Assembly (NCBI GenBank): GCA_964447685.1 | Contig: CAYUTI010000001.1 | Span: forward strand, 267,064 to 331,063 | DNA length: 64,000 nt | DNA from: Candidatus Woesearchaeota archaeon | GTDB lineage: Archaea > Nanobdellota > Nanobdellia > SCGC-AAA011-G17 > CAYUTI01 | Direction of reading: 5' to 3' | Shown: piece by piece, positions 11,197 to 52,152 of the stretch | Position numbering within the stretch: position 1 is the stretch's first letter | How the letters are laid out: the number at the start of each line of letters is the position of its first letter | Made by a program: the position numbers and the translations under genes | The notes under the pieces: model-generated | What the model saw: only the letters and a program-made list of their open reading frames with translations | Databases searched by the model: none | What the model was told of the DNA's origin: nothing

Positions 11197-11237
11197 TAAT
11201 ATTTATATAGGGTGTTTTCTTATAGAAATTATTCTAA

Positions 11238-11310
11238 GGGGACGTAGTTTAACCTGGCAGAGCACGTGGCTCCAGACCATGAAATGGGGGTTCAAATCCC
11301 TCCGTCCCCA
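11238..11310 (+). tRNA. tRNA-Trp (CCA)
   Basis: Hand-folded: acceptor GGGGACG/CGTCCCC, anticodon arm CGTGG-CTCCAGA-CCATG, T-arm GGGGG-TTCAAAT-CCCTC; no intron. Confidence 0.8.
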
Positions 11311-11429
11311 TCCTAATTTTTCTTTTGTCCTTAATTTGGGACAAAACTTCTACCGTAAGCTTTATATAGGGTATATAACTCTTGATGAGTAATTACATAT
11401 ATGTATTTACTAGGGAGTTGTCATAAAAA

Positions 11430-13493
11430 ATGGATATGAAGAGACAAATTTTAGGGATTGTTTTGATATTTTTGTTAGGCTTAAGTTTAGTTAACGCTGG
11501 TGTTGGTGTCCTTGATGATGGTGTTAGAATTTCTGAACCAACTGGTTATCAAGCTGCACCTTATGTTTATGAAGAAGGAGATAGTTTTGATGTTTGTTTT
11601 ACATTGAAAAATGAAAACAATTATGTTGCTTTAATCAACCCAACTTTTTATGTTATGAAATTAAATTATGCAGTTACTGGTTTTCCAGTTTATACTGAAG
11701 AACAATTGTTATGGGTTGTTCAAAATTATAATCCTACTCAAACTTTATATCATACTGAAAGTCGATTTATGGGATTAGGTGTTGATCAAACAAAATTAGT
11801 TTGTTTTAGTTATGAATTAGAAGAAGAAGGATATTACCAATTTGATTTGGGAAGAGATGGTAATGATAGTATGTGGGCTGCTGGTTTTATCAGAGTTGTT
11901 GATAATGATTCTGATGATGATGAAATTCCAGATCCTGAAGATAATTGTCCTTTAGTTTACAATCCTAATCAAACTGATAGTGATAATGATGGATTAGGTA
12001 ATGCATGTGATAACTGTGCATTTGACTATAATCCTTCCCAGGAAGATAGAGATGGTGACGGTATTGGGGATGTTTGTGATCCTAATGGTAGCACTGAATG
12101 TGATGATGGGATTGACAATGATGGAGATAACTTAGTAGATATGGATGATCCTGACTGTTCAAGTCCTGAAGATGATGATGAAAGTGGTAATAGTTTACCA
12201 GAGTGTTCAGATAATCTAGATAATGATGGAGATAATTTAATTGATGAATTAGATCCTGGTTGTTATACTAATGGATTCTATAATCCTCTAGATGATGATG
12301 AGAGTAATGATATCCCTGGAAGTTATGAATGTTCAGATCTAGTTGATAACGATGGAGATAACTTAGTAGATATGGATGATCCTGACTGTTCAAGTCCTGA
12401 AGATGATGATGAAAGTGGTAATAGTTTACCAGAGTGTTCAGATAATCTAGATAATGATGGAGATAATTTAATTGATGAATTAGATCCTGGTTGTTATACT
12501 AATGGATTCTATAATCCTTTAGATGATGATGAGAGTAATACCTCTGGTTACCAGTATGAATGTTCCGATTTAGTTGATAACGATGGAGATAATTTAGTTG
12601 ATTGGTATGACCCTGGTTGTTATACTAATGGAATCTATAACCCTTGGGATGATGATGAAACTAATGTTCCTAATGGAGATTATGAATGTTCAGATCAAGT
12701 TGATAACGATGGGGATGGATTAGCTGATGTTTTAGATCCTGGTTGTTGGGATAATGGTGTTTATAATCCTCTAGATGATGATGAGAGCAATGATATTCCT
12801 GGAACTTATGAATGTTCAGATTTAGAAGATAATGACAATGATGGATTTACTGATATGTTAGATCCTGGTTGTGATACACCTTTAGATGATGACGAGACTA
12901 ATGTTCCTAATGGAAATTATGAATGTTCAGATTTAACAGATAATGATGGAGATGACTTAATTGATTGGTTTGATCCTGGTTGTTATACCAATGGATACTA
13001 TAATCCTTGGGATGATGATGAGAGAAATCAAGGTAGTACTAATCCTGAATGTTCTGATGGAAGAGACAATGATGGAGACGGTTTAATTGATATGAAAGAT
13101 CCTGATTGTTTGAATCCTTGGGATGATAGAGAAGAAGGTAACAAAGGTTCTAATGCTGCAAGCCAACCTTGTGCTAAACACAGTTTAAGCATTACTCAAG
13201 TTGTATTGAATGATGACTGGACTGTTATCCAAGCAGGAGATCTTTTAGAAATCTATTCTAGCATTAAGAATGATGGAAGCTTCACTGAAAAGGGTGTTCA
13301 TATTAAAGCTGAAGTTGTTGAGTTAGGTGTTAGTGAAGAAAGTATTAGATTTACTTTAGGACCTAAAGAATCTGATTTCGCTAGTGTTTATTTAGATATT
13401 CCAGCTGATGCTTATGGTGTTTATACCTTAAGATTAGAAGTTGAGAATGACAATACAAAAGACGTACATTATGTTGATTTCGAGGTCTTTTAG
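11430..13493 (+). CDS. secreted Asp/Cys-rich repeat protein (thrombospondin type-3 / MopE-like motifs)
   Basis: Signal peptide; [27 protein letters not shown] (TSP3-like); nine ~38-aa repeats of ECSDxxDNDGDxLxDxxDPGC. Confidence 0.8.
12120..12581 (+). repeat. 2 x 231-bp near-perfect tandem duplication inside the repeat-protein gene
   Basis: 12120-12308 is nearly identical to 12351-12539 (one mismatch seen by eye); downstream copies become degenerate. Confidence 0.85.
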
Positions 13494-13568
13494 GCCTTGA
13501 ATCATGATACCGAAAGGTTTAAATATGGAAAATAACCATTCAATAGTGGTTATTTTATAGTACTATAA

Positions 13569-13586: not shown

Positions 13587-14903
13587 ATGAAAATAGCAAA
13601 ATTTGTTGCTGTATTGGCTGTATTTTTAGTAGCTCTTACTACTTTTGTAAGTGCTGAAAATACTGATTTGTACAGTATTAAACAAGTAAAAGTTGACGGT
13701 ATAACTGTTGACGGAGACGTAGTTGTTTACGCTGAGAGAGGAAGTTCACTTCCTGTTGAAGTAATAATCGAAGGAACTTTAGATTGTCCTGTAGATGAAG
13801 ACTGTTATTCAGAATACGATGCAAGAGTTAAAGCTTGGATTGGTGGTTATGAATACGGTGAAGTTAAAGATGTTACATCTGCTTTTGAAATTGAATCAGG
13901 TGTTACATACAAAAAGACTTTATCTTTAGATTTACCTAATGATATGGATGCTTCTGATGACTATACCTTACACGTTGAAGTTTATGATGACGACAACGAG
14001 TACAGAGAAAGTTACACTTTAAGAGTTCAAGAGACAAGACATCTATTAGCTATCCAAGATGTAATCTTTAGACCAAGTTTAACTGAAATTGATGCTGGTA
14101 GACCTTTGTTTACAACTGTTAGAGTTGAAAACTTAGGAGATAACAAAGAAGAAGACATCAAAGTTACAGTTAAAATTCCTGAATTAGGTCTTGAAACTAG
14201 AGACTATATCGACGAATTAACTGCTGATGAAGACAGAGATGAAGCTGAAGATAATGAGTATGAAGAAGATTCAGCAAGTTCTGATGAACTTTATTTAAGA
14301 ATCCCTGACAATGTTCAAAGTGGTTACTACGATGTTGTTGTTGAAGTTGAATACAACAGAGGTCACGATGTTGTTAGAGCAACCAAATCTCTTTACATAA
14401 ATGGTGTTCAAGCTGAAGAAACACAAAAAACTGTTATCAGTGTTGATGGTGGAGACAAGGAAATCGTTGCTGGTGAAGACGCTACATACAAAGTTATGTT
14501 CGCTAACCTTGGTGACGAAACTAAAATCTACACTGTTGAAGTTACTGGTGCAGGAAGCTGGGCTGACGTTAATGTTGAGCCAAGTTTCGTAGCTGTTAAA
14601 TCTGAATCAACTGGAGAAGCTTATATTACAGTTACTCCAAATGAAGATGCTAAAGCTGGTCAACACATGTTTACTGTTCAGATCTTAGAAGATGGCGATG
14701 TAGTTAAAGAAGTTAACTTAGTTGCTGATGTTGAAGCTAAAGAATCTGGATGGGATATCGCTAAAACAGTATTAGCTGTAGCTTTTATTGTATTATTAAT
14801 TGTATTAATAATCTTAGCTATTGCTTTAGCTGTTAGAGCTGGTAGAAGAGACGACGACGATGAGTTAGAGCCTACTACTGAAGAAGGCCAAACTTATTAC
14901 TAA
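13587..14903 (+). CDS. acidic cell-surface protein with C-terminal TM anchor; candidate S-layer / major envelope protein
   Basis: Signal peptide, C-terminal TM + RRDDDDE tail; codon usage shifts to GAC/TAC/AAC/ATC/GGT/GCT unlike neighbours; strong SD and hairpin-oligoT terminator. Confidence 0.6.
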   Translation: MKIAKFVAVLAVFLVALTTFVSAENTDLYSIKQVKVDGITVDGDVVVYAERGSSLPVEVIIEGTLDCPVDEDCYSEYDARVKAWIGGYEYGEVKDVTSAFEIESGVTYKKTLSLDLPNDMDASDDYTLHVEVYDDDNEYRESYTLRVQETRHLLAIQDVIFRPSLTEIDAGRPLFTTVRVENLGDNKEEDIKVTVKIPELGLETRDYIDELTADEDRDEAEDNEYEEDSASSDELYLRIPDNVQSGYYDVVVEVEYNRGHDVVRATKSLYINGVQAEETQKTVISVDGGDKEIVAGEDATYKVMFANLGDETKIYTVEVTGAGSWADVNVEPSFVAVKSESTGEAYITVTPNEDAKAGQHMFTVQILEDGDVVKEVNLVADVEAKESGWDIAKTVLAVAFIVLLIVLIILAIALAVRAGRRDDDDELEPTTEEGQTYY

Positions 14904-14935
14904 GGAGCTTTATCCTCCTTATTTCTTTTTTTTTA
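14902..14935 (+). terminator. hairpin + oligo-T terminator
   Basis: aaGGAG-cttatc-CTCCTT followed by atttcttttttttt. Confidence 0.55.
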
Positions 14936-20444: not shown

Positions 20445-21503
20445 TTATACTAAACTACTTGTAATCAAGAAAGTCATGAATGCTGTATAGAGTATTAAGA
20501 AAAATAAACCTTCTGTTCTTTCTATCTTCCAACCACTTCTAATGAAGATTAATAATAACGCGCTAATGATTATCATGAATGGTGCAGTGATACTGATTGT
20601 TGAAGGTAAAATTATAAGTGGTTTAATCAAACTTGCTATTCCTCCTATGAACAAAATGTTTGCAATGTTAGAACCCAAAATGTTTCCTAAGGCAATGCTA
20701 CCATATCCTTTTTTAGTTGCTGAAAGAGACACGGATAGTTCTGGTAAAGATGTGCCTACAGCAATTAGGCTTATACCTATGATGTTTTCAGATATATTTA
20801 ACAGTTTAGCAAAAAATATCGCTTCTTCAATTAAATAATTTGCACTTAGAACTATAAATCCTCCACTAATAATTAAGATTAGAAAATCTTTAATTAGACT
20901 TTCTTTAAATGCTTCTCTAATCTTCTTTTTTTCTGCTGGAGAAATCTTTTTGTTATTCTTTCTATTGTTAATGCTTATTAATACCTTACTCTTAACTGTT
21001 AATACATACCTGAATTTGAAAAAATAATTAATAAATTCTCTAAAGTATCTTTGGTCTTGTGGATTTAATTCGAATAAGAATATTACATAAGCAATATAGA
21101 CTAGGATCATTAGAATTGCTTCTATTCTTGAAACTAGTCCGTTGTATAAGAAGATATAAAATAAAATAGTGATAAATAACATAATGTATCCATCTCTTTT
21201 TAGAATGCTTTCTTTTGTTTTTATAACGTAGAGAGTTGCTACGAAACCTAAAATTAAACTTATATTAGCTATATTTGAACCAATAATATTTCCTATAATG
21301 ATTCCAGGAGCATCTTTTAAAGATGCAGCTACTGATGAAGCCAATTCTGGTAAAGAGGTTCCTAATGCAACTACTGTTAAACCGATTATAAAATTTGAAA
21401 CACCTAACTTTTTGGATATTGTTGCTGCTACTTTAACGAAATGATCGGAGCTTTTAACTAGGAGTGTTAATGCTATTATAAAAATTAATAATTCTAGGAT
21501 CAT
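20445..21503 (-). CDS. Na+/Ca2+ exchanger (CaCA family, YrbG-like)
   Basis: Duplicated alpha-repeats GNIIGSNIANISLILG and GNILGSNIANILFIGG; multi-TM. Confidence 0.75.
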   Translation of the reverse strand: MILELLIFIIALTLLVKSSDHFVKVAATISKKLGVSNFIIGLTVVALGTSLPELASSVAASLKDAPGIIIGNIIGSNIANISLILGFVATLYVIKTKESILKRDGYIMLFITILFYIFLYNGLVSRIEAILMILVYIAYVIFLFELNPQDQRYFREFINYFFKFRYVLTVKSKVLISINNRKNNKKISPAEKKKIREAFKESLIKDFLILIISGGFIVLSANYLIEEAIFFAKLLNISENIIGISLIAVGTSLPELSVSLSATKKGYGSIALGNILGSNIANILFIGGIASLIKPLIILPSTISITAPFMIIISALLLIFIRSGWKIERTEGLFFLILYTAFMTFLITSSLV

Positions 21504-26266: not shown

Positions 26267-27211
26267 TTAGACAGATTTTACGGTTTGATTTCTACCACTC
26301 TGTTTAGCGGTGTATAATGCTTTGTCTGCTCTTGCTACTAAATCTAGTTTATTTTCTTCTTCTTTAAGCTGAGCAACACCTGCACTGATAGTAATTCTAA
26401 TAGGAATACCTTTATATTCAAAATATTCATTTTCTATTGCTTTTCTTATTTCATCAGTTTCTTTTTGAGCAGTTTCTAAATCTTTTCCTGGGAACAGTAA
26501 TGAAAATTCTTCTCCACCATACCTTCCACTTAATTTTTCTCCAGCTTTCTCTCTGATTATTCTTGATACTTCAGTTAGAACATAGTCACCTCCTAGGTGA
26601 CCAATTCTTTCATTATGATCTCTAAAATGATCAATATCAATCATTGCAAAGGAAAATGATTCATTATATCTATTTGCTGTTCTTACTCTATAGTCTATTG
26701 CTCTTTCTAGAGTTCTTCTATTTTGTAAGCTAGTTAAAGCGTCTATATCACTTAGTTCTTCATTTGCTTTTTTGTTTTTGATCTTTTTTTCTGCTAAAGA
26801 AGCAATCTTTTTAATTAAATGGATTTGTGGACCTATGAAACCTTGTTTATTATAAACAAAGAATACCCCATTTTCAGTAGGAATTGCTAGGTAAGGACCA
26901 TTATGAGTTGTTCTTTGACTTTCATAGGTTGTAGTTATTAACTCTTCTACTCCTTCCAAGGTTTCTGGAGTTTCTTTAATTCTTCCTCTTTCAAGTAATT
27001 CATCTCCTTCAATAATTCTAACAGAACCACCTTCTAATTCATCTCCAAGGTTTCTGAAATATTCTTGAATTGCTCTAAGAGTTTGGTTTGCTAATTCTCC
27101 AACATCATTATAATCATCTAACTCTTCTTGAACTGCACTAATAAAAGAGAGCTCACTAGGCGAAAACTGTCCATATTCTCTTATAAGTTTGTCTAGTGCC
27201 ATTTTATTCAC
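26267..27211 (-). CDS. GGDEF-domain diguanylate cyclase with unknown ~150-aa N-terminal domain
   Basis: Full motif set DALTSLQNRR, FSFAMIDIDHFRDHNERIGH, GGDYVL, GRYGGEEFSLLFPG, ISAGVA, ADKALYTAKQSGRNQ; no RxxD I-site. Confidence 0.85.
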   Translation of the reverse strand: MNKMALDKLIREYGQFSPSELSFISAVQEELDDYNDVGELANQTLRAIQEYFRNLGDELEGGSVRIIEGDELLERGRIKETPETLEGVEELITTTYESQRTTHNGPYLAIPTENGVFFVYNKQGFIGPQIHLIKKIASLAEKKIKNKKANEELSDIDALTSLQNRRTLERAIDYRVRTANRYNESFSFAMIDIDHFRDHNERIGHLGGDYVLTEVSRIIREKAGEKLSGRYGGEEFSLLFPGKDLETAQKETDEIRKAIENEYFEYKGIPIRITISAGVAQLKEEENKLDLVARADKALYTAKQSGRNQTVKSV

Positions 27212-30934: not shown

Positions 30935-32386
30935 ATGAAAAAGAGGAAATTTAAACATGTTAAGGAGTATAAGGATTTTATTATTCTTATTTGGGTTATT
31001 TTTGGAGTTGGTTTAGTAATCTTTAATTCTAATCTTTCTTTGGAAGATATAACTGGTTTTGTTGTTAGTGGAGATGATTTTGATATCTTTGTTGAGTGTG
31101 TTATTCCTAATCAAAGTGTTGGACATGGAGATAGTGGTTATATTATTAATTTTAGTTATCTTTGGAATGGATTTGAAAATCTTAGTTTAGATGAAAGTAA
31201 ATTTAGAGGACCTAAAACTGATGTTGAACCTATTACAGTATTTGAACCTGGGAAACATTCTTTTTTAGTTGGCGTTCATGCTAATGGAAATTTAAATTGG
31301 GAAGTTGTTATTGAGGAAATTGAAAAGGGTATAACTGTTGGTAAGGATTATGGAACTGTTTGTAATGTTAGTTTAGATTTAGATGAAGATGGATTTTATG
31401 AAGATGATTGTGATGATACTAATGCTTTGATAAATCCTTATGCTTATGAAATTTGTGATGGTTTAGATAATGATTGTAACTTAGATACTTTAGATGGTTC
31501 TTTTGAGAATTGGTATTTTAACACTACTTCTTGTGGGATTGGAGAGTGTTTTGCTATGGGTATTATGGATTGTATAAATGGTAGTTTAGTGAATACTTGT
31601 ACCGTTCTTGATGAATCTGTTGAAGATTGTGATGGTCTTGATAATGATTGTGATGGTTTGATTGATGAGGATTTAACTAGAGAGTGTAGTAATAATTGTA
31701 GTGTTGGTGTTGAGATTTGTTTTGATGCTGAATGGATTAATTGTAGTGCTGAGGCTTGTGTAGAGGTTCCCTTGAATGAAACGATTCCTGAGAATGAAAC
31801 TATTCCTTTGAATGAGACAATACCTGAAAATGAAACCTTGCCTGAGGAAGAAATTGATTTTGGAATTGTTTTATTAAGTCCTGAAAATGAGTTGAGTACT
31901 TATGATAGAGATTTTGAGTTTGAGTATTTAAGTAATGCTAGCAATTGTAGTTTAATTTTAGATGGGATCGAGGTTAATGGTTTCAATTTTAATTTAGGGA
32001 TTGGTAAACATAATTGGAGTGTTAGTTGTTTAGAAAATTCTAGTGAGGTTTGGAGTTTAGTTATTTTAGAGCAAGTTAATACTGGAAGTTCTGGAAGTGG
32101 TTCTAATGGCAAGGATGATAATATAGAAATTGTTCCGGTTCAAGAGGTTGTAGAAGAACCTGAGGAGATTGTTGTTGAACCTTTTGAAGTTGAGACTGGA
32201 GGAAGTAGTAGAATTGTTAGAAATGAAACTATTATTGAAGATGAACCTTCGATTAATCCAATTACGGGTTTTGCTGCTTTGGATATAATGAGTGATCTAA
32301 ATCCTGGTTGGTGGTTGATTTTACTAATAGTTAGTTCTGGATTGGTTTATTATGTTTATAAGAAGAAGTTCTTGAAGAAAAAATGA
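30935..32386 (+). CDS. surface protein with MopE-like CDGxDNDCDG metal-binding motifs, NET tandem repeats and C-terminal TM
   Basis: CDGLDNDCN.. and CDGLDNDCDGLIDED; NETIPENETIPLNETIPENETLPEE; C-terminal TM + KKKFLKKK. Confidence 0.7.
   Translation: MKKRKFKHVKEYKDFIILIWVIFGVGLVIFNSNLSLEDITGFVVSGDDFDIFVECVIPNQSVGHGDSGYIINFSYLWNGFENLSLDESKFRGPKTDVEPITVFEPGKHSFLVGVHANGNLNWEVVIEEIEKGITVGKDYGTVCNVSLDLDEDGFYEDDCDDTNALINPYAYEICDGLDNDCNLDTLDGSFENWYFNTTSCGIGECFAMGIMDCINGSLVNTCTVLDESVEDCDGLDNDCDGLIDEDLTRECSNNCSVGVEICFDAEWINCSAEACVEVPLNETIPENETIPLNETIPENETLPEEEIDFGIVLLSPENELSTYDRDFEFEYLSNASNCSLILDGIEVNGFNFNLGIGKHNWSVSCLENSSEVWSLVILEQVNTGSSGSGSNGKDDNIEIVPVQEVVEEPEEIVVEPFEVETGGSSRIVRNETIIEDEPSINPITGFAALDIMSDLNPGWWLILLIVSSGLVYYVYKKKFLKKK
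31774..31845 (+). repeat. 4 x 18-bp tandem repeat encoding NETIP(E/L)
   Basis: aatgaaacgattcctgag / aatgaaactattcctttg / aatgagacaatacctgaa / aatgaaaccttgcctgag. Confidence 0.7.
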
Positions 32387-32634: not shown

Positions 32635-35600
32635 GTGGTGTATAAACGTTATATTACTGATAAGAATGGAAAAAAGAGAGGACCTTATTATTACAAGAAT
32701 ATTCGGGAGAATGGTAAGGTAAAATCTGTTTATTTAGGTACTAAGAATCCTGAAGATAAAAATGTTTTTAATTATAAACCTATGTTCGTAGTTGCTTTGT
32801 TTTTGATTGGTGTGTTTGGTATTGTTTTTTTGAATTTAGTTTATACTGGTTATTCTGTACATGAGTCTAATTCTTCTAGTACCGATGAGTGGATAATGTT
32901 TGGTAGAACTTTAAATAATACCCGACTTTATCCAGATAATATTAATTTAGCAAATTTTGGACTTTTGTGGACTTCTCCTGCTACTAGTGGTTCAATGGTT
33001 TATACAAGTGCTTCTATTCTTGAAGGAGTTTTATATTATGGAGATACAGGAGGTTATATTCGTGCTATTAATCTGTCTACTGGTGAATCAAGATGGAATT
33101 TTTCTTTAAATTCTACTATTACTTATTCTTCTTCTGCAATTGCGAATAATACTTTATTTATTGGTACAGGAAGTACTAATGAAGAGGGCAGTAAACAACT
33201 TTTTGCTTTAAATATTACGAATGGAACTCGGCTTTGGAATCGATCTCTTGGAAATGCAGTTGGTTCTCCGGTAGTATATAATAATACTGTTTATGTTATG
33301 ACTCAGAATAAGGTTTTTGCATATTCTTTATATGGTGATCACTTGTGGAATCGTAGTGGAAATGGATCAGATATTATTCCATATCCTCCTTCTTTAGCAG
33401 TATATAATAATACTTTGGTAGTTTCTTTAAAAGAAAGCACGAATCATTTTTTACAAGCTTTAAATGCTACTGATGGAACCTTATTCTGGAATTCTCACCT
33501 TCGGGGTAGAACATCAAATCCAGCGATTTATGAAGATGTAGTTTATGTTGGAGGAGGTTTAAATTCTTCTTGGGCAATGGTTACTGCAGTTTGGTTCACT
33601 AACGGAACCCAAAGATGGAATTATACTTTTGATCAGACTTGTTCGATGGTTCGGTCTTCTCCTGCGGTTTCTAATGATAGAGTTTTTGTTGGAGTTACTT
33701 GTCCTCAAGCCTTGGATGATTTTTATGCTTTTAATGCTACAAATGGTTCTGTTATTTGGAGTAAAAACTTGGGTACAAATTTAGTTCCAAGCCCTACTGT
33801 TACAAATAATGGAATTGTTTTTATGGGTTCTGATGACAATAAAGTTTATGCTTTTGATGTTACTAATGGAGATGAACTTTGGATGTATACTACTCCTAAT
33901 CTAATAACTTACTCTTCTCCTACTATTGTTGATGGAAGATTGTATATCGGTTGTGAGAACGGAAATATGTATGCTTTTGCACAAAATGATACTATCGCTC
34001 CTCAAGTTAATCTTCTTACTCCTCTTGATAATCAATCTTATTTTACAAGTGAAGCTACTAGAACACTTACTTTTACTTATAATGTTTCAGATGGAGGTAA
34101 TGATATTGCTAATTGTAGTTTAATTTTGGATGGTGCTGTGTTTAGTACTAATAGTACCATTGTTAAGAGTCAATCTAGTTTGAGTTTTGATGTGGCAATA
34201 CCTTATGGAGATCATACTTGGAATATTAATTGTACAGATTATGGAAATAATGAGGGAACTAATTCTAGTAGAAGTTTGAATTTATTACTTGTTTCTGAAA
34301 ATAACTCTATTAGTGATTGGTTAATGTTTAGAGGAACATTAAATCATACCGGTTATTATCCTGGAACGGTTAATTTGAATAATTTTGGTTTGTTGTGGAA
34401 TTATCCTACTTTTGATGATTTGAGTACTCCTGCATCTTCTCATGCTATTTATTCAAGTCCGGTTGTTTATAATAATACTGTGTTTTTTTCTGCTCAACAT
34501 CAATCCCCACCTATTCATAATCACTATTCTTTAAATGCTACAAATGGAAGCAAGGTTTGGAATTACAGTTATAATATACTTGGTTCTATTGGTGAACCTT
34601 CCAGCCCGGCTATCACTAACCATCTCTTATATGTAGGAAGTAGTATAGGAAATCTTACTTCTATCTGGGTTAATAATGGAACACCAAAATGGAAGGGAAT
34701 AGAGGGAGTTATCCTTTCAAGCCCAGCGATTTATAATAATACTCTTTTTATTGGAGAAGGAACAAATCTTTCTGCATTTAATGCAAGCGACGGTACTTTG
34801 CTCTGGACGCGTTACTCAAATAATTCGAATAATTATGCAACTCCTGCTGTTAGAGATGGTATAGTATATATGGGGGGGTCTAATGGTACTGGAAATCTTG
34901 GTGTATTCTATGCTCTTTGGACTAATAATGGAACTATAAAGTGGAGTAAGAAATTAAATGGAACTTATACATCTAGTCCTACTTTAGTTAATGATCTGCT
35001 TTATATCGGAACTTTGACTAAACAGGTTTATGCCTTAAATACTACTGATGGAGATATTGTTTGGAATTATACTACCGGAGATGTTATTTATTCTTCTCCT
35101 GCTTTTTTTAAAGGTGTGACTTATATTGGAAGTAATGATAATAATCTTTATGCTTTTAATGCTACCAATGGTACTTTAGTATGGAATTATTCTACAGGAG
35201 GAGATGTTTATTCAAGTCCTACAATCACAGAGAATGGTATTTTATTTGTTGGTGGGGCAGATAATAAATTTTATGCTTTTAATGCTACTAATGGAGAAAA
35301 ACTTTGGGAATATACAACAGAAAATCTTATTAGTTATTCTAGTCCTGCTATTGCAAATGGTAGGATTTATATTGGTTGTGTGAATGGAGATATGTATGCT
35401 TTTGCTGCAAGTGCGGATACGGATTATCCAATAGTTACTTTATCAATTCCTACTGCTGGACAGACTTTTTCAGTAGGTTCACAAAATATAAGTATTACTT
35501 TTACCTATAGTGTTTCGGATGTAAGTAATGATATTGCTAATTGTAGTTTGATCATTGATGGCGTTGTTAATTTGACTAATAGCACTATTGTTAAAAGTCA

Positions 35601-36858
35601 AAGCAGTTTATTTTTTAACCAAACTTTTGCTATATCAACAACTCATACTTGGGATGTAAATTGTACAGATTATGGAAATAATGAAGGAAATAGTAGTGGA
35701 CCTAGGAGTTTTAGTATAAATGCTATAACTAGCCCAGGAGGTCCTAGTTCTTCTAGTTCTCCTAGCACTCCCGTTACTCCAGTTACTCCAGTAGTAGTTC
35801 CTGAACCTAAGCCCGAAGTAAAACCTGAATCGGTGATAGAACCAGCACCTCCAGTTACAACTCAAATTTTGAGTAGTGCAGGTAACTCAAGAAGTCAGAT
35901 GAGATCTTGTTTGAAGGAAGCTGATTTTAGTCCTGAAGAAGCGGAGTATATAGTTGATGTGTTAGGTTTAGATTTGTGTGCTTTTAAGAGAGGTAATGTT
36001 GATATTGCTGTTGAGGAGAGATGTGGGGGTATAGAAATTGTTTTAGATTCTAATACAAGAGTATTTAGTTCAATGTTGGATAGTGTCCCTGAATTCTTAG
36101 TGGATTTTAGTGCTAAACAGATTAGTGAAGAATGCCCTTGGTGTAATAATGGTGTTAAGGATTATGATGAAGAAGGAATAGATTGTGGTGAAAGTTGTAA
36201 AGCTTGTGATGTTGTTGAGGAAGTTATTTATGAGTTTGATTATAAAGAAGTGTTGCCTTGGTGGTTGTTGATTCTTGCTTTTGGATTTTTGGTTGTTTTA
36301 TTTTATTTTAGAAATTACTCTAGGATTCATTTTAAATCTTTTACGGTGGTAGGGATTTTAATTGCTTTTGGATTATTTTTAATGAATGGTTCTGGTAAGA
36401 TTACTGGTGCTGCTATAGGTCTTGTTGATACATTAAATAATATCTATATCTTTGTTTTGTTTTGGTTTATTGTTTTTGGATTTTTAGGTTTTTGGATTTA
36501 TAAAAAAATTACTCGTGTTAGGCCTAGTTTGATGAGTGTTGAAAGTTTATTGAAAGATTGTATGGATTTACTGAAAAAAGAGGAATATGGTCATGCTAGA
36601 GAAGTGTTTGATTTAGCAGATAGCAGGTATCATGATTTACGTAAGAGTAACGAAGAAGTTGATAATCTATATAATGAAATTGAATTTTATCTTGAAGTTT
36701 ATGATTTATGTAATCGGATTAAATTGAAGGAAAAAGTTAAAGAAAAAGAATTTGATAAGTTGATTGCTAAGGCTTCTAAAATTAAAGTGAGTTCTAAAGA
36801 TGTTTATGCTGATATGAAATCTAAGTTTGATTCTGCTTTAAGAAGCTTTAAAAGATAA
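32635..36858 (+). CDS. giant (1407 aa) membrane-anchored surface protein: 2 x [PQQ-like beta-propeller + Ig-like module], Pro/Thr linker, Cys knot, 3 C-terminal TMs
   Basis: Repeated PQQ/BamB-like blades (VYVGS.DNKLYAFNATNGxxLWxYTT); duplicated ANCSLIxDG...IVKSQSSL...NCTDYGNNEG modules; dense NxS/T sequons; start is GTG/uncertain. Confidence 0.75.
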   Translation: MVYKRYITDKNGKKRGPYYYKNIRENGKVKSVYLGTKNPEDKNVFNYKPMFVVALFLIGVFGIVFLNLVYTGYSVHESNSSSTDEWIMFGRTLNNTRLYPDNINLANFGLLWTSPATSGSMVYTSASILEGVLYYGDTGGYIRAINLSTGESRWNFSLNSTITYSSSAIANNTLFIGTGSTNEEGSKQLFALNITNGTRLWNRSLGNAVGSPVVYNNTVYVMTQNKVFAYSLYGDHLWNRSGNGSDIIPYPPSLAVYNNTLVVSLKESTNHFLQALNATDGTLFWNSHLRGRTSNPAIYEDVVYVGGGLNSSWAMVTAVWFTNGTQRWNYTFDQTCSMVRSSPAVSNDRVFVGVTCPQALDDFYAFNATNGSVIWSKNLGTNLVPSPTVTNNGIVFMGSDDNKVYAFDVTNGDELWMYTTPNLITYSSPTIVDGRLYIGCENGNMYAFAQNDTIAPQVNLLTPLDNQSYFTSEATRTLTFTYNVSDGGNDIANCSLILDGAVFSTNSTIVKSQSSLSFDVAIPYGDHTWNINCTDYGNNEGTNSSRSLNLLLVSENNSISDWLMFRGTLNHTGYYPGTVNLNNFGLLWNYPTFDDLSTPASSHAIYSSPVVYNNTVFFSAQHQSPPIHNHYSLNATNGSKVWNYSYNILGSIGEPSSPAITNHLLYVGSSIGNLTSIWVNNGTPKWKGIEGVILSSPAIYNNTLFIGEGTNLSAFNASDGTLLWTRYSNNSNNYATPAVRDGIVYMGGSNGTGNLGVFYALWTNNGTIKWSKKLNGTYTSSPTLVNDLLYIGTLTKQVYALNTTDGDIVWNYTTGDVIYSSPAFFKGVTYIGSNDNNLYAFNATNGTLVWNYSTGGDVYSSPTITENGILFVGGADNKFYAFNATNGEKLWEYTTENLISYSSPAIANGRIYIGCVNGDMYAFAASADTDYPIVTLSIPTAGQTFSVGSQNISITFTYSVSDVSNDIANCSLIIDGVVNLTNSTIVKSQSSLFFNQTFAISTTHTWDVNCTDYGNNEGNSSGPRSFSINAITSPGGPSSSSSPSTPVTPVTPVVVPEPKPEVKPESVIEPAPPVTTQILSSAGNSRSQMRSCLKEADFSPEEAEYIVDVLGLDLCAFKRGNVDIAVEERCGGIEIVLDSNTRVFSSMLDSVPEFLVDFSAKQISEECPWCNNGVKDYDEEGIDCGESCKACDVVEEVIYEFDYKEVLPWWLLILAFGFLVVLFYFRNYSRIHFKSFTVVGILIAFGLFLMNGSGKITGAAIGLVDTLNNIYIFVLFWFIVFGFLGFWIYKKITRVRPSLMSVESLLKDCMDLLKKEEYGHAREVFDLADSRYHDLRKSNEEVDNLYNEIEFYLEVYDLCNRIKLKEKVKEKEFDKLIAKASKIKVSSKDVYADMKSKFDSALRSFKR

Positions 36859-50634: not shown

Positions 50635-52152
50635 ATGTATACTGAAAAAGTTATGAAATATTTTAAGCATCCTAAGAATATGGGTGTTATTAAGAATGCT
50701 GATGCAGTTGGTCAGGTTGGAAATCCTACTTGTTTATTACCTGAAGAAATTATCCATAAAAATCCTGAAATTGTGCATATTAATAAAATTTCTAAAGATG
50801 ATAAAGTTTTAACTCATACTGGAGATTATAAAAAAGTTATTGCTATTTCTTGTAATCCTTATAAAGGAGATATTATTAGATTAAAAAATAAACTTGGAAA
50901 AATTTCCTTTACCCCAGAACATTTGGTTTATGCTATTAAAGTTCCCAAACATGATAAATTTTTAAGATCGAAGAATAAGAAAATGTTAGTGCCTGCTTGG
51001 TATCATGCAGATCAATTGGAGGTAGGAGATATTTCTTTATATCCTATCCATAAAAATGAAAAAGATATTGAATCTTTGAAGATTGATATACCCGAACTTG
51101 AATGGGATTATAGAAGTAAAGAAATCCCTGATGAAATCCCCGTTAATGATGATTTATTGAGATTGTTTGGTTATTTTTTATCTGAAGGAAATGTTCAAGA
51201 CAAACCATGTAAAACATATATCTCTTTTTCATTAAATATTGCGGAAACAGATATCGTTGAAGATATTAGAAAAATATGTCAAAATCTTTTTAATTTGTCA
51301 GTTAAAGTTAAAAATTTTCCTAAAAGGAATACAGTTATTGTTTATTTGTATAATGCAAGAATCGCAAGATTTTTTAAAAAAATTATGAGTAATGGGGCTA
51401 AAAATAAAAAAATTCCTGCTTTTGTAATGTATCTTCCAAAAGAAAAACAAAAATCATTGATTTTTGGACTTTGGAAAGGGGATGGTTATGTTAATCTTGA
51501 GAGGGATGGACCGAGAGCAGGTTATTCTACAATATCTTATCAACTTGCGCAACAATTAAAAATTTTGTTAATAAGACAAAAAATTTTACCTTCTATTTAT
51601 GAAGAGGATGAAAAAAACATTAGAGGTGTTAATCATAAAAAAAATTATAGGCTTCATGTTGGTCAAAGAGAATCTTTGATTAATCTTTGTAAAATTTTGA
51701 ATATTAATTATGAACCTAAAATTTATAAATCAATTAAATCTTGGTTTGATAATAATTTTCTTTATATCCCCATTACGAAAAAAGATTCTTTTTATTATGA
51801 AGGGAATGTACATAATTTAGAGGTTATTGATTCACATTCTTTTGTTTCAGGTGCTTTTTGTTTGCATAATTGTGGTGATGTAATGAAGATTTATTTAAAA
51901 ATTGGTAAGGATTCTAAAGGTAGAGAGGTGATTAAGGATTGTAAATTTGAAACCTTGGGATGTATTGCTGCAATCGCTACAAGTTCTATTACTACTGAAT
52001 TAGCCAAAGGGAAGACTCTTGATGAAGCTATGAAAATTGATAAGAAAAAAGTAGCTGATTCTTTAGGGGGGTTGCCTGCTGCTAAATTTCATTGTTCTAT
52101 TTTAGCTGTTGATGCTTTGAAGAAGGCTATTGAGAATTATCGGAAGAAATAG
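50635..52152 (+). CDS. iscU: FeS scaffold IscU interrupted by a 380-aa intein
   Basis: Exteins MYTEK..VGQVGNPT and CGDVMKIY..LGCIAAIA..KFHCSILAVDAL rejoin as the IscU GNP(T)CGDVM core. Confidence 0.85.
   Translation: MYTEKVMKYFKHPKNMGVIKNADAVGQVGNPTCLLPEEIIHKNPEIVHINKISKDDKVLTHTGDYKKVIAISCNPYKGDIIRLKNKLGKISFTPEHLVYAIKVPKHDKFLRSKNKKMLVPAWYHADQLEVGDISLYPIHKNEKDIESLKIDIPELEWDYRSKEIPDEIPVNDDLLRLFGYFLSEGNVQDKPCKTYISFSLNIAETDIVEDIRKICQNLFNLSVKVKNFPKRNTVIVYLYNARIARFFKKIMSNGAKNKKIPAFVMYLPKEKQKSLIFGLWKGDGYVNLERDGPRAGYSTISYQLAQQLKILLIRQKILPSIYEEDEKNIRGVNHKKNYRLHVGQRESLINLCKILNINYEPKIYKSIKSWFDNNFLYIPITKKDSFYYEGNVHNLEVIDSHSFVSGAFCLHNCGDVMKIYLKIGKDSKGREVIKDCKFETLGCIAAIATSSITTELAKGKTLDEAMKIDKKKVADSLGGLPAAKFHCSILAVDALKKAIENYRKK
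50731..51870 (+). mobile_element. LAGLIDADG homing-endonuclease intein in iscU
   Basis: Starts with Cys (CLLPEE..), ends ..CLHN followed by extein Cys; two LAGLIDADG blocks (LLRLFGYFLSEGN, LIFGLWKGDGYV). Confidence 0.8.

Follow-up and report, generated by a model that had tools for sequence, protein, structure and literature searches.

A secreted Woesearchaeota protein with two thrombospondin type-3 repeats and nine NF033662 units as a candidate calcium-stiffened surface spacer

The 64,000-nucleotide (nt) stretch analyzed here, referred to as the window, lies on a metagenome-assembled contig (CAYUTI010000001.1) of a Candidatus Woesearchaeota archaeon. At 11430..13493 on the plus strand it carries a gene with an ATG start for a secreted acidic protein of 687 residues, which we call the repeat protein. 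Its first 23 residues (11430..11498, plus strand; read from the sequence) end in SLVNA ahead of Gly-24 and have, by eye, the makeup of a typical Sec signal peptide, namely a Lys/Arg n-region, a 15-residue hydrophobic core and a small-x-small motif before Gly-24. The mature part begins at nucleotide 11499 and has a computed mass of about 73 kDa and a computed pI of about 4.05. We found that the protein has four parts: an immunoglobulin (Ig)-like head, two thrombospondin type-3 (T3) repeats, nine units of the NF033662 family, and a C-terminal CARDB-like domain. No transmembrane segment and no recognizable sorting signal could be read at its C-terminus. The initial annotation of this DNA had described a secreted surface protein, and both the signal peptide and the cell-surface gene context agree with that description. 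The repeat protein is a singleton at 90% identity in a collection of 5.8 billion proteins, and our searches turned up no other protein that combines the rare N-terminal domain with two T3 repeats, nine units and a CARDB-like tail.

The nine acidic disulfide units, U1–U9, occupy residues 223–580 (12096..13169, plus strand) and match NCBIfam NF033662 in nine stretches with 166.5 bits (E 6.6e-50; curated cutoff 41). Each unit starts with Glu-Cys, and their lengths are 35, 42, 35, 42, 42, 42, 37, 42, and 41 residues in order (U1, 12096–12200; U2, 12201–12326; U3, 12327–12431; U4, 12432–12557; U5, 12558–12683; U6, 12684–12809; U7, 12810–12920; U8, 12921–13046; U9, 13047–13169; all plus strand). The core of the unit reads E-C-x-D-x-x-D-N-D-G-D-x-L-x-D-x-x-D-P-[GD]-C and is followed by P-x-D-D-D-E. 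Positions E1, C2, D4, D7, N8, D9, D11, D15, D18, P19, and C21 are fixed in all nine units, and a 5-residue insertion of the pattern Y-x-N-G-x-Y-N follows the second cysteine in six of them. The units contain neither His nor Met. Over 420 residues the repeat region is 32% Asp plus Glu, with a net charge of about -130. The nine acidic cysteine-containing units of the initial annotation are thus present, as units of 35–42 residues.

We consider it very nearly certain that these units are ordinary members of NF033662, which bears the name 'acidic double-disulfide repeat-containing protein'. More than 2741 proteins share the repeat at E<=1e-5, joined to many different domains, and the taxa that carry it include Woesearchaeota, Nanoarchaeota, Myxococcota, Planctomycetota, and others. 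The relatives have the same C-x-D-G-x-D-N-D-G-D-G-x-x-D-x-x-D-P-G-C...D-D-D-E unit in tandem arrays, and those with the same two-cysteine unit score 119–321 bits on the NF033662 model. A literature search found no publication on this family. A preprint on 'cysteine-rich repeats / HGT (horizontal gene transfer)' (10.64898/2026.06.07.730663) was set aside, as it deals with a different cysteine pattern.

Immediately ahead of the units, residues 158–218 (11901..12083, plus strand) cover two consecutive T3 repeats, including the DNCPxxxNPxQxDxDxDGxGDxCD pattern. In a phmmer search of the PDB, this segment matched COMP (3fby, E 2.4e-26) and thrombospondin-2 (1yo8, E 5.3e-26) in 60-residue alignments, with further matches to thrombospondin-2 (2rhp, about 5e-26) and thrombospondin-1 (1ux6, 4e-9). 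Pfam TSP_3 (PF02412) recognizes the excised residues 158–243 with 27.6 bits (E 2.3e-6), just over the gathering score of 25, so that the T3 repeat claimed at the outset is real. A Pfam scan of the full-length protein reported neither TSP_3 nor the acidic units; the TSP_3 miss is probably due to composition filters, and the informative searches for this protein are those with excised segments against Pfam, or against NCBIfam. The repeat protein differs from animal thrombospondins in having two T3 repeats instead of the animal array and in lacking the EGF domain and the C-terminal lectin-like globe. The nine acidic units share the DxDxDGxxD calcium logic of the T3 repeats but are a variant of their own, shorter and with a single disulfide, which Pfam TSP_3 fails to recognize.

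When a profile of the nine units was compared with all PDB sequences, only the C-rich domains of teneurins matched, the best being 7plp (Ten4; E 1e-4), together with teneurin-2, -3, and -m. The 21-residue unit core aligns to the teneurin C-rich domain without gaps and with 11–14 of 20 residues identical; in the other direction, the human Ten4 21-mer scores 28.4 bits (E 1e-6) on the NF033662 model. The Ten4 C-rich domain was determined at 1.5 Å with three bound Ca2+, two of them in sites described as thrombospondin-T3-like, and the protein is stabilized by calcium (PMC9058538). The ligands are E835, D840, D843, N844, D845, D847, D851, D854, and D856 plus three backbone carbonyls, and a C838–C857 disulfide clasps the calcium-binding part (PMC9058538). 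We found that the equivalents of D840, D843, N844, D845, D847, D851, and D854 and of both clasping cysteines are invariant in all nine units, which amounts to seven of the eight aligned ligand side-chain positions of Ten4.

Of the teneurin C-rich domain (Ten4 834–871, 7plp), the repeat protein thus keeps seven Ca2+ ligand positions and the disulfide clasp; other features differ. Teneurins have one copy with six cysteines in three disulfides (1–3, 2–5, 4–6; PMC9058538) and a conotoxin-like C-terminal half; the repeat protein has nine tandem copies with two cysteines each, and equivalents of C852, C858, C863, and C869 are absent, the C852-equivalent position being Met, Glu, Trp, or Val. Meijer et al. 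found no fold similar to the whole C-rich domain (PMC9058538). A diatom or algal origin of the domain was proposed by Tucker et al. (PMC3278476), and a paper on bacterial teneurins that we consulted (PMC13018210) has nothing on the C-rich domain. A prokaryotic repeat origin of the teneurin C-rich core seems worth testing.

From the teneurin alignment and the analogy to T3 repeats, we infer that the nine units bind Ca2+. In the model that we propose, patterned on the 'wire' of thrombospondin T3 repeats and on the half of the teneurin C-rich domain to which the units are homologous, each unit would form a short loop closed by one disulfide (C2–C21), and its Asp and Asn side chains would wrap two T3-type Ca2+ and possibly a third. 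The 420-residue acidic segment would be disordered without Ca2+, and loading with Ca2+ outside the cell would turn it into a stiff, protease-resistant spacer or rod.

At the far end of this putative spacer sits the N-terminal β-sandwich (residues 24–159; 11499..11906, plus strand), which has a GYYQxD...GFIRV signature and a C56/C125 pair. This domain is rare. An exhaustive HMMER search of 1.84 billion representatives found it in 15 proteins at E<=1e-3, and this search was needed, as a word-indexed search with the domain alone returned no matches. AlphaFold2, given a small alignment, predicted a confident β-sandwich with a predicted local distance difference test (pLDDT) score of 91 and a predicted template modelling score of 0.84. 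Foldseek matched it to generic Fn3/CARDB-like sandwiches with template modelling scores (TM) of about 0.6, which provide no clue to function.

The C-terminal domain (residues 581–687; 13170..13490, plus strand) is a CARDB-like β-sandwich according to AlphaFold2, Foldseek, and hhalign, and we propose that it is a docking domain. AlphaFold2 built it with a pLDDT of about 81–93, and the top Foldseek match was 2kl6 (E 6e-6), the CARDB domain of Pyrococcus furiosus PF1109; for 2kl6 and 3idu the TM is 0.67–0.69 on the target (0.69 for 3idu_B). Pfam CARDB (PF07705) does not match this domain, and NPCBM_assoc matches weakly (E 0.015), below its cutoff. The 25 cysteines of the repeat protein comprise C56 and C125, four in the T3 segment, 18 in the units, and C581 (nt 13170–13172) at the start of the C-terminal domain. 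When the others are paired, C581 is left without a partner. A cysteine near this position is present in two related proteins described below (from loci L003 and L016) and absent from a third (P0047), and an intermolecular disulfide through C581 is possible.

Downstream of the repeat gene, after a 93-nt spacer, the plus strand carries a partner gene (13587..14903) for a 438-residue protein with matches to Pfam NPCBM_assoc and FixG_C. The partner protein has a signal peptide, CARDB/NEW3-like Ig domains, a C-terminal transmembrane helix, and an acidic tail ending in GQTYY. Its homologs number more than 415, are of uniform length (408–453 residues), and, where the source is named, come exclusively from Woesearchaeota, Nanoarchaeia/Nanoarchaeota or an unspecified archaeon. 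By these homolog names, the source organism falls within the DPANN archaea. Across the partner family (including P0136–P0254), a terminal (G)QTYY or SYY is conserved after the transmembrane helix and is sometimes extended to YYYPKY; this tail may serve as a motif for sorting or interaction on the cytoplasmic side. The C-terminal domain of the repeat protein shares an AGxxL...NxG...ELG...IPxxAxxGxY pattern with the partner protein, and a profile of five such C-terminal domains was aligned by hhalign to partner domain 2 with 98.8% probability (E 4e-17). Compared with other domains of the CARDB/NEW3/NPCBM_assoc kind, those described here are always C-terminal and occur in variable secreted proteins encoded beside a partner gene.

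We found an upstream secreted protein ending in a CARDB-like domain next to the partner gene at five of the seven loci examined, namely in the window and at four others (L003, L014, L015, and L016). At L003, from Woesearchaeota Bin_534, a 1040-residue NF033662/PKD protein precedes a partner homolog with 32% identity (E 2e-45). At L014, a 688-residue protein (P0047) precedes a partner homolog with 44% identity (E 3e-111), and downstream of the partner gene comes an SMC gene on the minus strand, as in the window. Like the repeat protein, P0047 has the rare N-terminal domain (34% identity over 137 residues) and the C-terminal domain; it differs in having a PKD domain in place of the T3 repeats and six units as compared with nine; it is a positional ortholog with a remodelled middle. 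At L015 and L016, the upstream slot is filled by PKD/cadherin-like proteins of 800 and 826 residues that have very dissimilar heads and no acidic units, and end in the same C-terminal domain.

The repeat gene and the partner gene may be transcribed together. A scan with a bacterial-type consensus found that the partner gene is followed by a hairpin and T-run resembling a terminator (14901..14931, plus strand) and the repeat gene by none, which is suggestive of co-transcription as far as a consensus of bacterial type can tell. The spacer between the two genes holds a 12-bp A/U-rich hairpin followed by UUUUAU (13529–13556, plus strand). Its folding energy is not significant (z = -1.4), and the hairpin might act either as a weak terminator or as a 5'-untranslated-region element.

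Taken together, these findings lead us to favor, by a slight preponderance, the view that the repeat protein serves at the cell surface as a spacer, stiffened by Ca2+, that bears an Ig-like head. How it is held there is a separate matter. Having no anchor of its own, the repeat protein may dock onto, or co-assemble with, the membrane-anchored partner through its C-terminal CARDB-like domain, and would then project its head away from the cell. We propose docking to the partner or to its lattice because the two genes are adjacent and the C-terminal domain is homologous to partner domain 2, and we hold this part at less than even confidence. Bolder still is the idea of a two-gene module of Woesearchaeota and Nanoarchaeia, made of an anchor of ~430 residues and a hypervariable upstream protein. 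In such a module the CARDB-like domain, as the sole constant part of the upstream proteins, would plug them into the surface layer, while heads and spacers (NF033662 units, PKD, cadherin-like, T3) would be swapped and resized by recombination, thereby retargeting attachment to the host. This we regard as tentative.

Several points weigh against these proposals. For docking, the evidence consists of gene adjacency and domain homology, and many surface proteins of archaea contain CARDB-like domains. At two loci (L017 and L018), the partner is present and no such gene lies upstream of it. As for calcium, the position of Ten4 D856 is kept in three of the nine units and is Gly in the other six, and E835 has no aligned equivalent, which makes a third Ca2+ site per unit doubtful. 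Going by the family name, a repeat would have two disulfides, and the units here have two cysteines each, as do those of the highest-scoring relatives, P0002 and P0016; in our search, no experiment or structure was found for any NF033662 protein. AlphaFold2 gave U8–U9 a pLDDT of 40–60 and no regular secondary structure. Because of this low confidence, predicted Ca2+ binding and rigidity rest on the 21-residue teneurin alignment and the T3 analogy; the AlphaFold2 result is compatible with the idea of a disordered segment that becomes a rod, and proves nothing.

The L017 and L018 loci, both from Nanoarchaeia, also hold a separate gene of interest. Downstream of the partner lies a gene (6855–8888 in L017, 6491–8494 in L018) for a Cys-rich protein of ~670 residues with three CDxKDNDCDGLIDE motifs of the MopE type and an N-terminal domain with GCYQLDW, reminiscent of the GYYQxD signature in the window.

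The alternative that survives best assigns the adhesive function to the repeats themselves, with the Ca2+-loaded acidic loops binding glycans or proteins of the host surface layer and the Ig-like ends playing a lesser part. DPANN archaea are generally regarded as episymbionts, and adhesion molecules are among the proteins that contain T3 repeats or the teneurin C-rich domain. In addition, the repeat is joined to many unrelated heads, such as PKD, peptidase, and lectin-like domains, across thousands of proteins. We nevertheless judge this account unlikely: L015 and L016 fill the same slot with repeat-free proteins, which fits a spacer or scaffold better than an indispensable binder. As the initial annotation suggested, the repeat protein may take part in interaction with a host.

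The repeat array has a recent history of recombination. Tandem Repeats Finder (TRF) reported a period of 231 nt with 2.2 copies and 92% matches at 12112–12615, followed by weaker periods of 126, 111, and 237 nt further downstream. The initial annotation had noted that 12120–12350 and 12351–12581 are near-identical over about 190 bp with a single mismatch and that later units have diverged, and this holds. The two blocks differ at 17 of 231 positions, and 12120–12287 equals 12351–12518 exactly over 168 bp, the sole exact direct repeat of >=30 bp in the window. A single mismatch at 12288 (CTA/TTA, both Leu and hence synonymous), followed by another 20 identical bp, extends the tract to 189 bp. 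Copy 1 (12120..12308, plus strand) comprises the U1 tail and the U2 body, and copy 2 (12351..12539, plus strand) the U3 tail and the U4 body. By DNA identity, U1/U3 (91%) and U2/U4 (88%) stand above all other unit pairs (54–81%).

Both edges of the tract are sharp. On the left, the heads of U1 and U3 mismatch at 11 of 45 nt, and in its head U3 most resembles U5 (4 mismatches in 45), so that U3 is a hybrid of a U5-like head and a tail equal to that of U1. On the right, a 15-nt linker patch encoding DIPGS (12309..12323, plus strand) has 1/15 identity to its TSGYQ counterpart at 12540–12554, and beyond it similarity returns to 41/45. The right-hand tails also resemble those of later units (U2 against U6, 3 mismatches in 42; U5 against U7, 5 in 42). 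These comparisons show that two blocks of two units each, set 231 bp apart, recently underwent the homologous exchange that gave rise to the 189-bp tract, and the array is a mosaic of repeated homologous exchanges.

Two routes could lead to this arrangement. An unequal crossover between U1 and the ancestor of U5 would create the hybrid U3 and a duplicated U2, with a second event required for the linker. Alternatively, a gene-conversion tract of ~190 bp between pre-existing two-unit blocks would produce both sharp edges at once and leave the similarity of the U3 and U5 heads to older relatedness. The mismatch counts that bear on crossover versus conversion (1/189 nt vs 2/39 nt; Fisher p = 0.08) are not decisive. 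The very recent duplication of the initial annotation therefore stands in part: a recent recombination did make ~190 bp identical, and duplication is one of the two ways to read it.

Similar blocks occur in related genes. In the L003 gene, a 291-nt block recurs 717 nt away at 98% identity, and the L014 gene has 114-nt units at 91% identity; in P0002, two near-identical unit types alternate at the protein level. Because near-identical internal blocks are found in all three genes examined at the DNA level (3/3), repeat turnover is typical of the family, and recent homogenization is a property of the repeat family and not a peculiarity of this gene.

We considered whether the two-copy structure might be an assembly artifact, either a mis-resolved repeat or a chimera of strains in a metagenome-assembled genome. 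The 408-kb contig was assembled from a metagenome, an exact repeat of 168–189 bp exceeds the usual short-read k-mers, and we found no other assembly of the gene with which to compare it. Exact-protein lookup, the singleton cluster, and scans of genome and metagenome contigs gave no second copy of the gene; the contig scans returned repeat-level relatives at 29–66% identity and one 39-residue segment at 90%. However, the two copies differ in their left flanks (U1 versus U3 head), in their right flanks (DIPGS versus TSGYQ), and at the internal mismatch. With distinct flanks and an internal mismatch, a path that uses all the junctions must therefore cross the shared tract at least twice, as deduced from the sequence. 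Moreover, the reading frame is intact, and independent assemblies of related genes contain similar near-identical blocks. An artifact is thus improbable.

The gene had also been proposed to be phase-variable and prone to changes in repeat number. A contingency gene of this kind, in which the number of repeats shifts at high frequency to evade or retarget the host, would have a suitable substrate here, as long near-perfect tandem repeats can undergo RecA/RadA-mediated slippage, and unit number does differ between orthologs. The period of 231 nt is 3 x 77, however, so that changes stay in frame and on/off switching is impossible. TRF found no microsatellite or other short tandem repeat in or before the gene, the long-period array being the only one, and we found no inverted repeats flanking the promoter of the type that would mark an invertible promoter. 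There are, furthermore, only two copies of the long repeat. We therefore dropped phase variability and give high-frequency contingency little credence. Of the proposed change in repeat number, the part that concerns orthologs stands (nine versus six units) and the part that concerns a single population does not, although there is in principle room for size variation within a population. What changes fast from lineage to lineage is the length of the spacer and the order of its units, and this implies no on/off switching of expression.

The initial annotation likened the units to the metal-binding motif of MopE, which would make the repeat protein one that binds or scavenges copper or another transition metal. 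The two motifs do share a C-x-D-G-x-D-N-D-x-D-G-x-x-D-E/D skeleton, and both occur in secreted Cys-rich proteins. Because Tucker et al. had earlier aligned the teneurin core to the MopE motif (PMC3278476), the resemblance is real at the level of a superfamily motif and does not amount to family membership. MopE motifs carry a Cys in DNDCDG where the repeat protein carries Gly, and DND[GN]D is found in all nine units and DNDCD in none. Pfam Cu-binding_MopE (PF11617) gave no match at E<=0.1 for the full protein, nor at E<=10 for repeat segments cut out of it. The positive control, a true MopE-motif protein encoded elsewhere in the window at 30935, matched at E 1.5e-10. Conversely, the MopE-motif protein from L017 has no match to NF033662. 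The all-oxygen ligand set (Asp, Asn, and backbone) is typical of Ca2+, and the units have no His or Met to offer. We therefore rejected membership in the MopE family, assign the units to NF033662, and consider a transition-metal role highly improbable.

Equally improbable is a bulk cation buffer or mineral-nucleating surface protein with no spacer or adhesive role: the acidity of the repeat region and a Na+/Ca2+ exchanger gene 7 kb away would suit it, but strict conservation of ligand positions and of the disulfide speaks for defined sites and not diffuse charge, and the presence of a folded domain at either end, together with the conserved pairing of the genes, points to an architectural role. 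The exchanger family protein in question (PF01699, E 7e-60) is encoded at 20445–21503 on the minus strand, and its proximity is probably coincidental.

Both repeat kinds, NF033662 and T3, are already known, and concerted evolution is usual for such arrays, so that the feature as such is ordinary. For annotation, the protein can be named as a thrombospondin type-3/NF033662 acidic disulfide repeat protein in place of 'hypothetical', and labels such as copper-binding or phase-variable are unwarranted. The teneurin C-rich structure provides the first structural template for a large uncharacterized prokaryotic repeat family (>2700 proteins at E<=1e-5) and predicts which residues of the unit bind Ca2+. 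As a side implication, no less tentative than the two-gene module, the half of the metazoan teneurin C-rich domain that binds Ca2+ would derive from one captured unit of the prokaryotic NF033662 repeat. The recurrent gene pairing and the shared CARDB-like domain offer a testable idea of how DPANN cells display fast-evolving surface proteins. The template and gene-pair points are modest, and neither will strongly surprise a specialist.

The region upstream of the repeat gene contains a TATA-box-like TTTATATAGGG at 11362..11372 (plus strand), about 60 nt 5' of the ATG by direct reading, which is a putative promoter element of the repeat gene. The identical 11-mer TTTATATAGGG at 11203 precedes a tRNA-Trp gene (CCA anticodon; 11238–11310, plus strand) that lies 120 nt upstream of the repeat gene. 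TATA-like boxes stand ahead of both the repeat gene and the partner gene. A scan for σ70 promoters gave background level only and is irrelevant to an archaeon. Between the TATA-like box and the ATG of the repeat gene is a 24-nt palindrome, AGTAATTACATATATGTATTTACT, at 11388–11411.

The gene content of the window is archaeal, with RtcB, an XPD-type helicase, SMC, and ThrRS with an archaea-specific editing domain, and the GC content is 31%. The positive control mentioned above (30935–32386, plus strand) is a 483-residue membrane-anchored protein with two true MopE-type motifs, CDGLDNDCNLD (31454–31486) and CDGLDNDCDGLIDED (31628–31672), and with a short stretch of tandem (I)PxNET repeats that holds many N-glycosylation sequons. 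The next large gene (32635–36858, plus strand) encodes a 1407-residue protein with two PQQ/BamB-like β-propellers, many N-x-S/T sequons, and several C-terminal transmembrane helices. CDGxDNDCDG motifs had been said to recur in the surface proteins at 30935 and at 36.1 kb. This is correct for the first, with its two motifs and PF11617 match; at 36.1 kb, the Cys motif CPWCNNGVKDYDEEGIDCGESCKAC (36133–36207), which falls within the 1407-residue protein, has a different pattern.

Two further genes are of separate interest. A 313-residue protein (26267–27211, minus strand) has a full GGDEF diguanylate-cyclase domain (E 2e-34) in an archaeal genome of the DPANN type; reports of cyclic di-GMP signaling in archaea are rare. 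A 505-residue NifU_N/IscU-like protein (50635–52152, plus strand) has its NifU domain split by a LAGLIDADG_3 homing-endonuclease domain (residues 272–353), and this insertion is probably an intein inside IscU.

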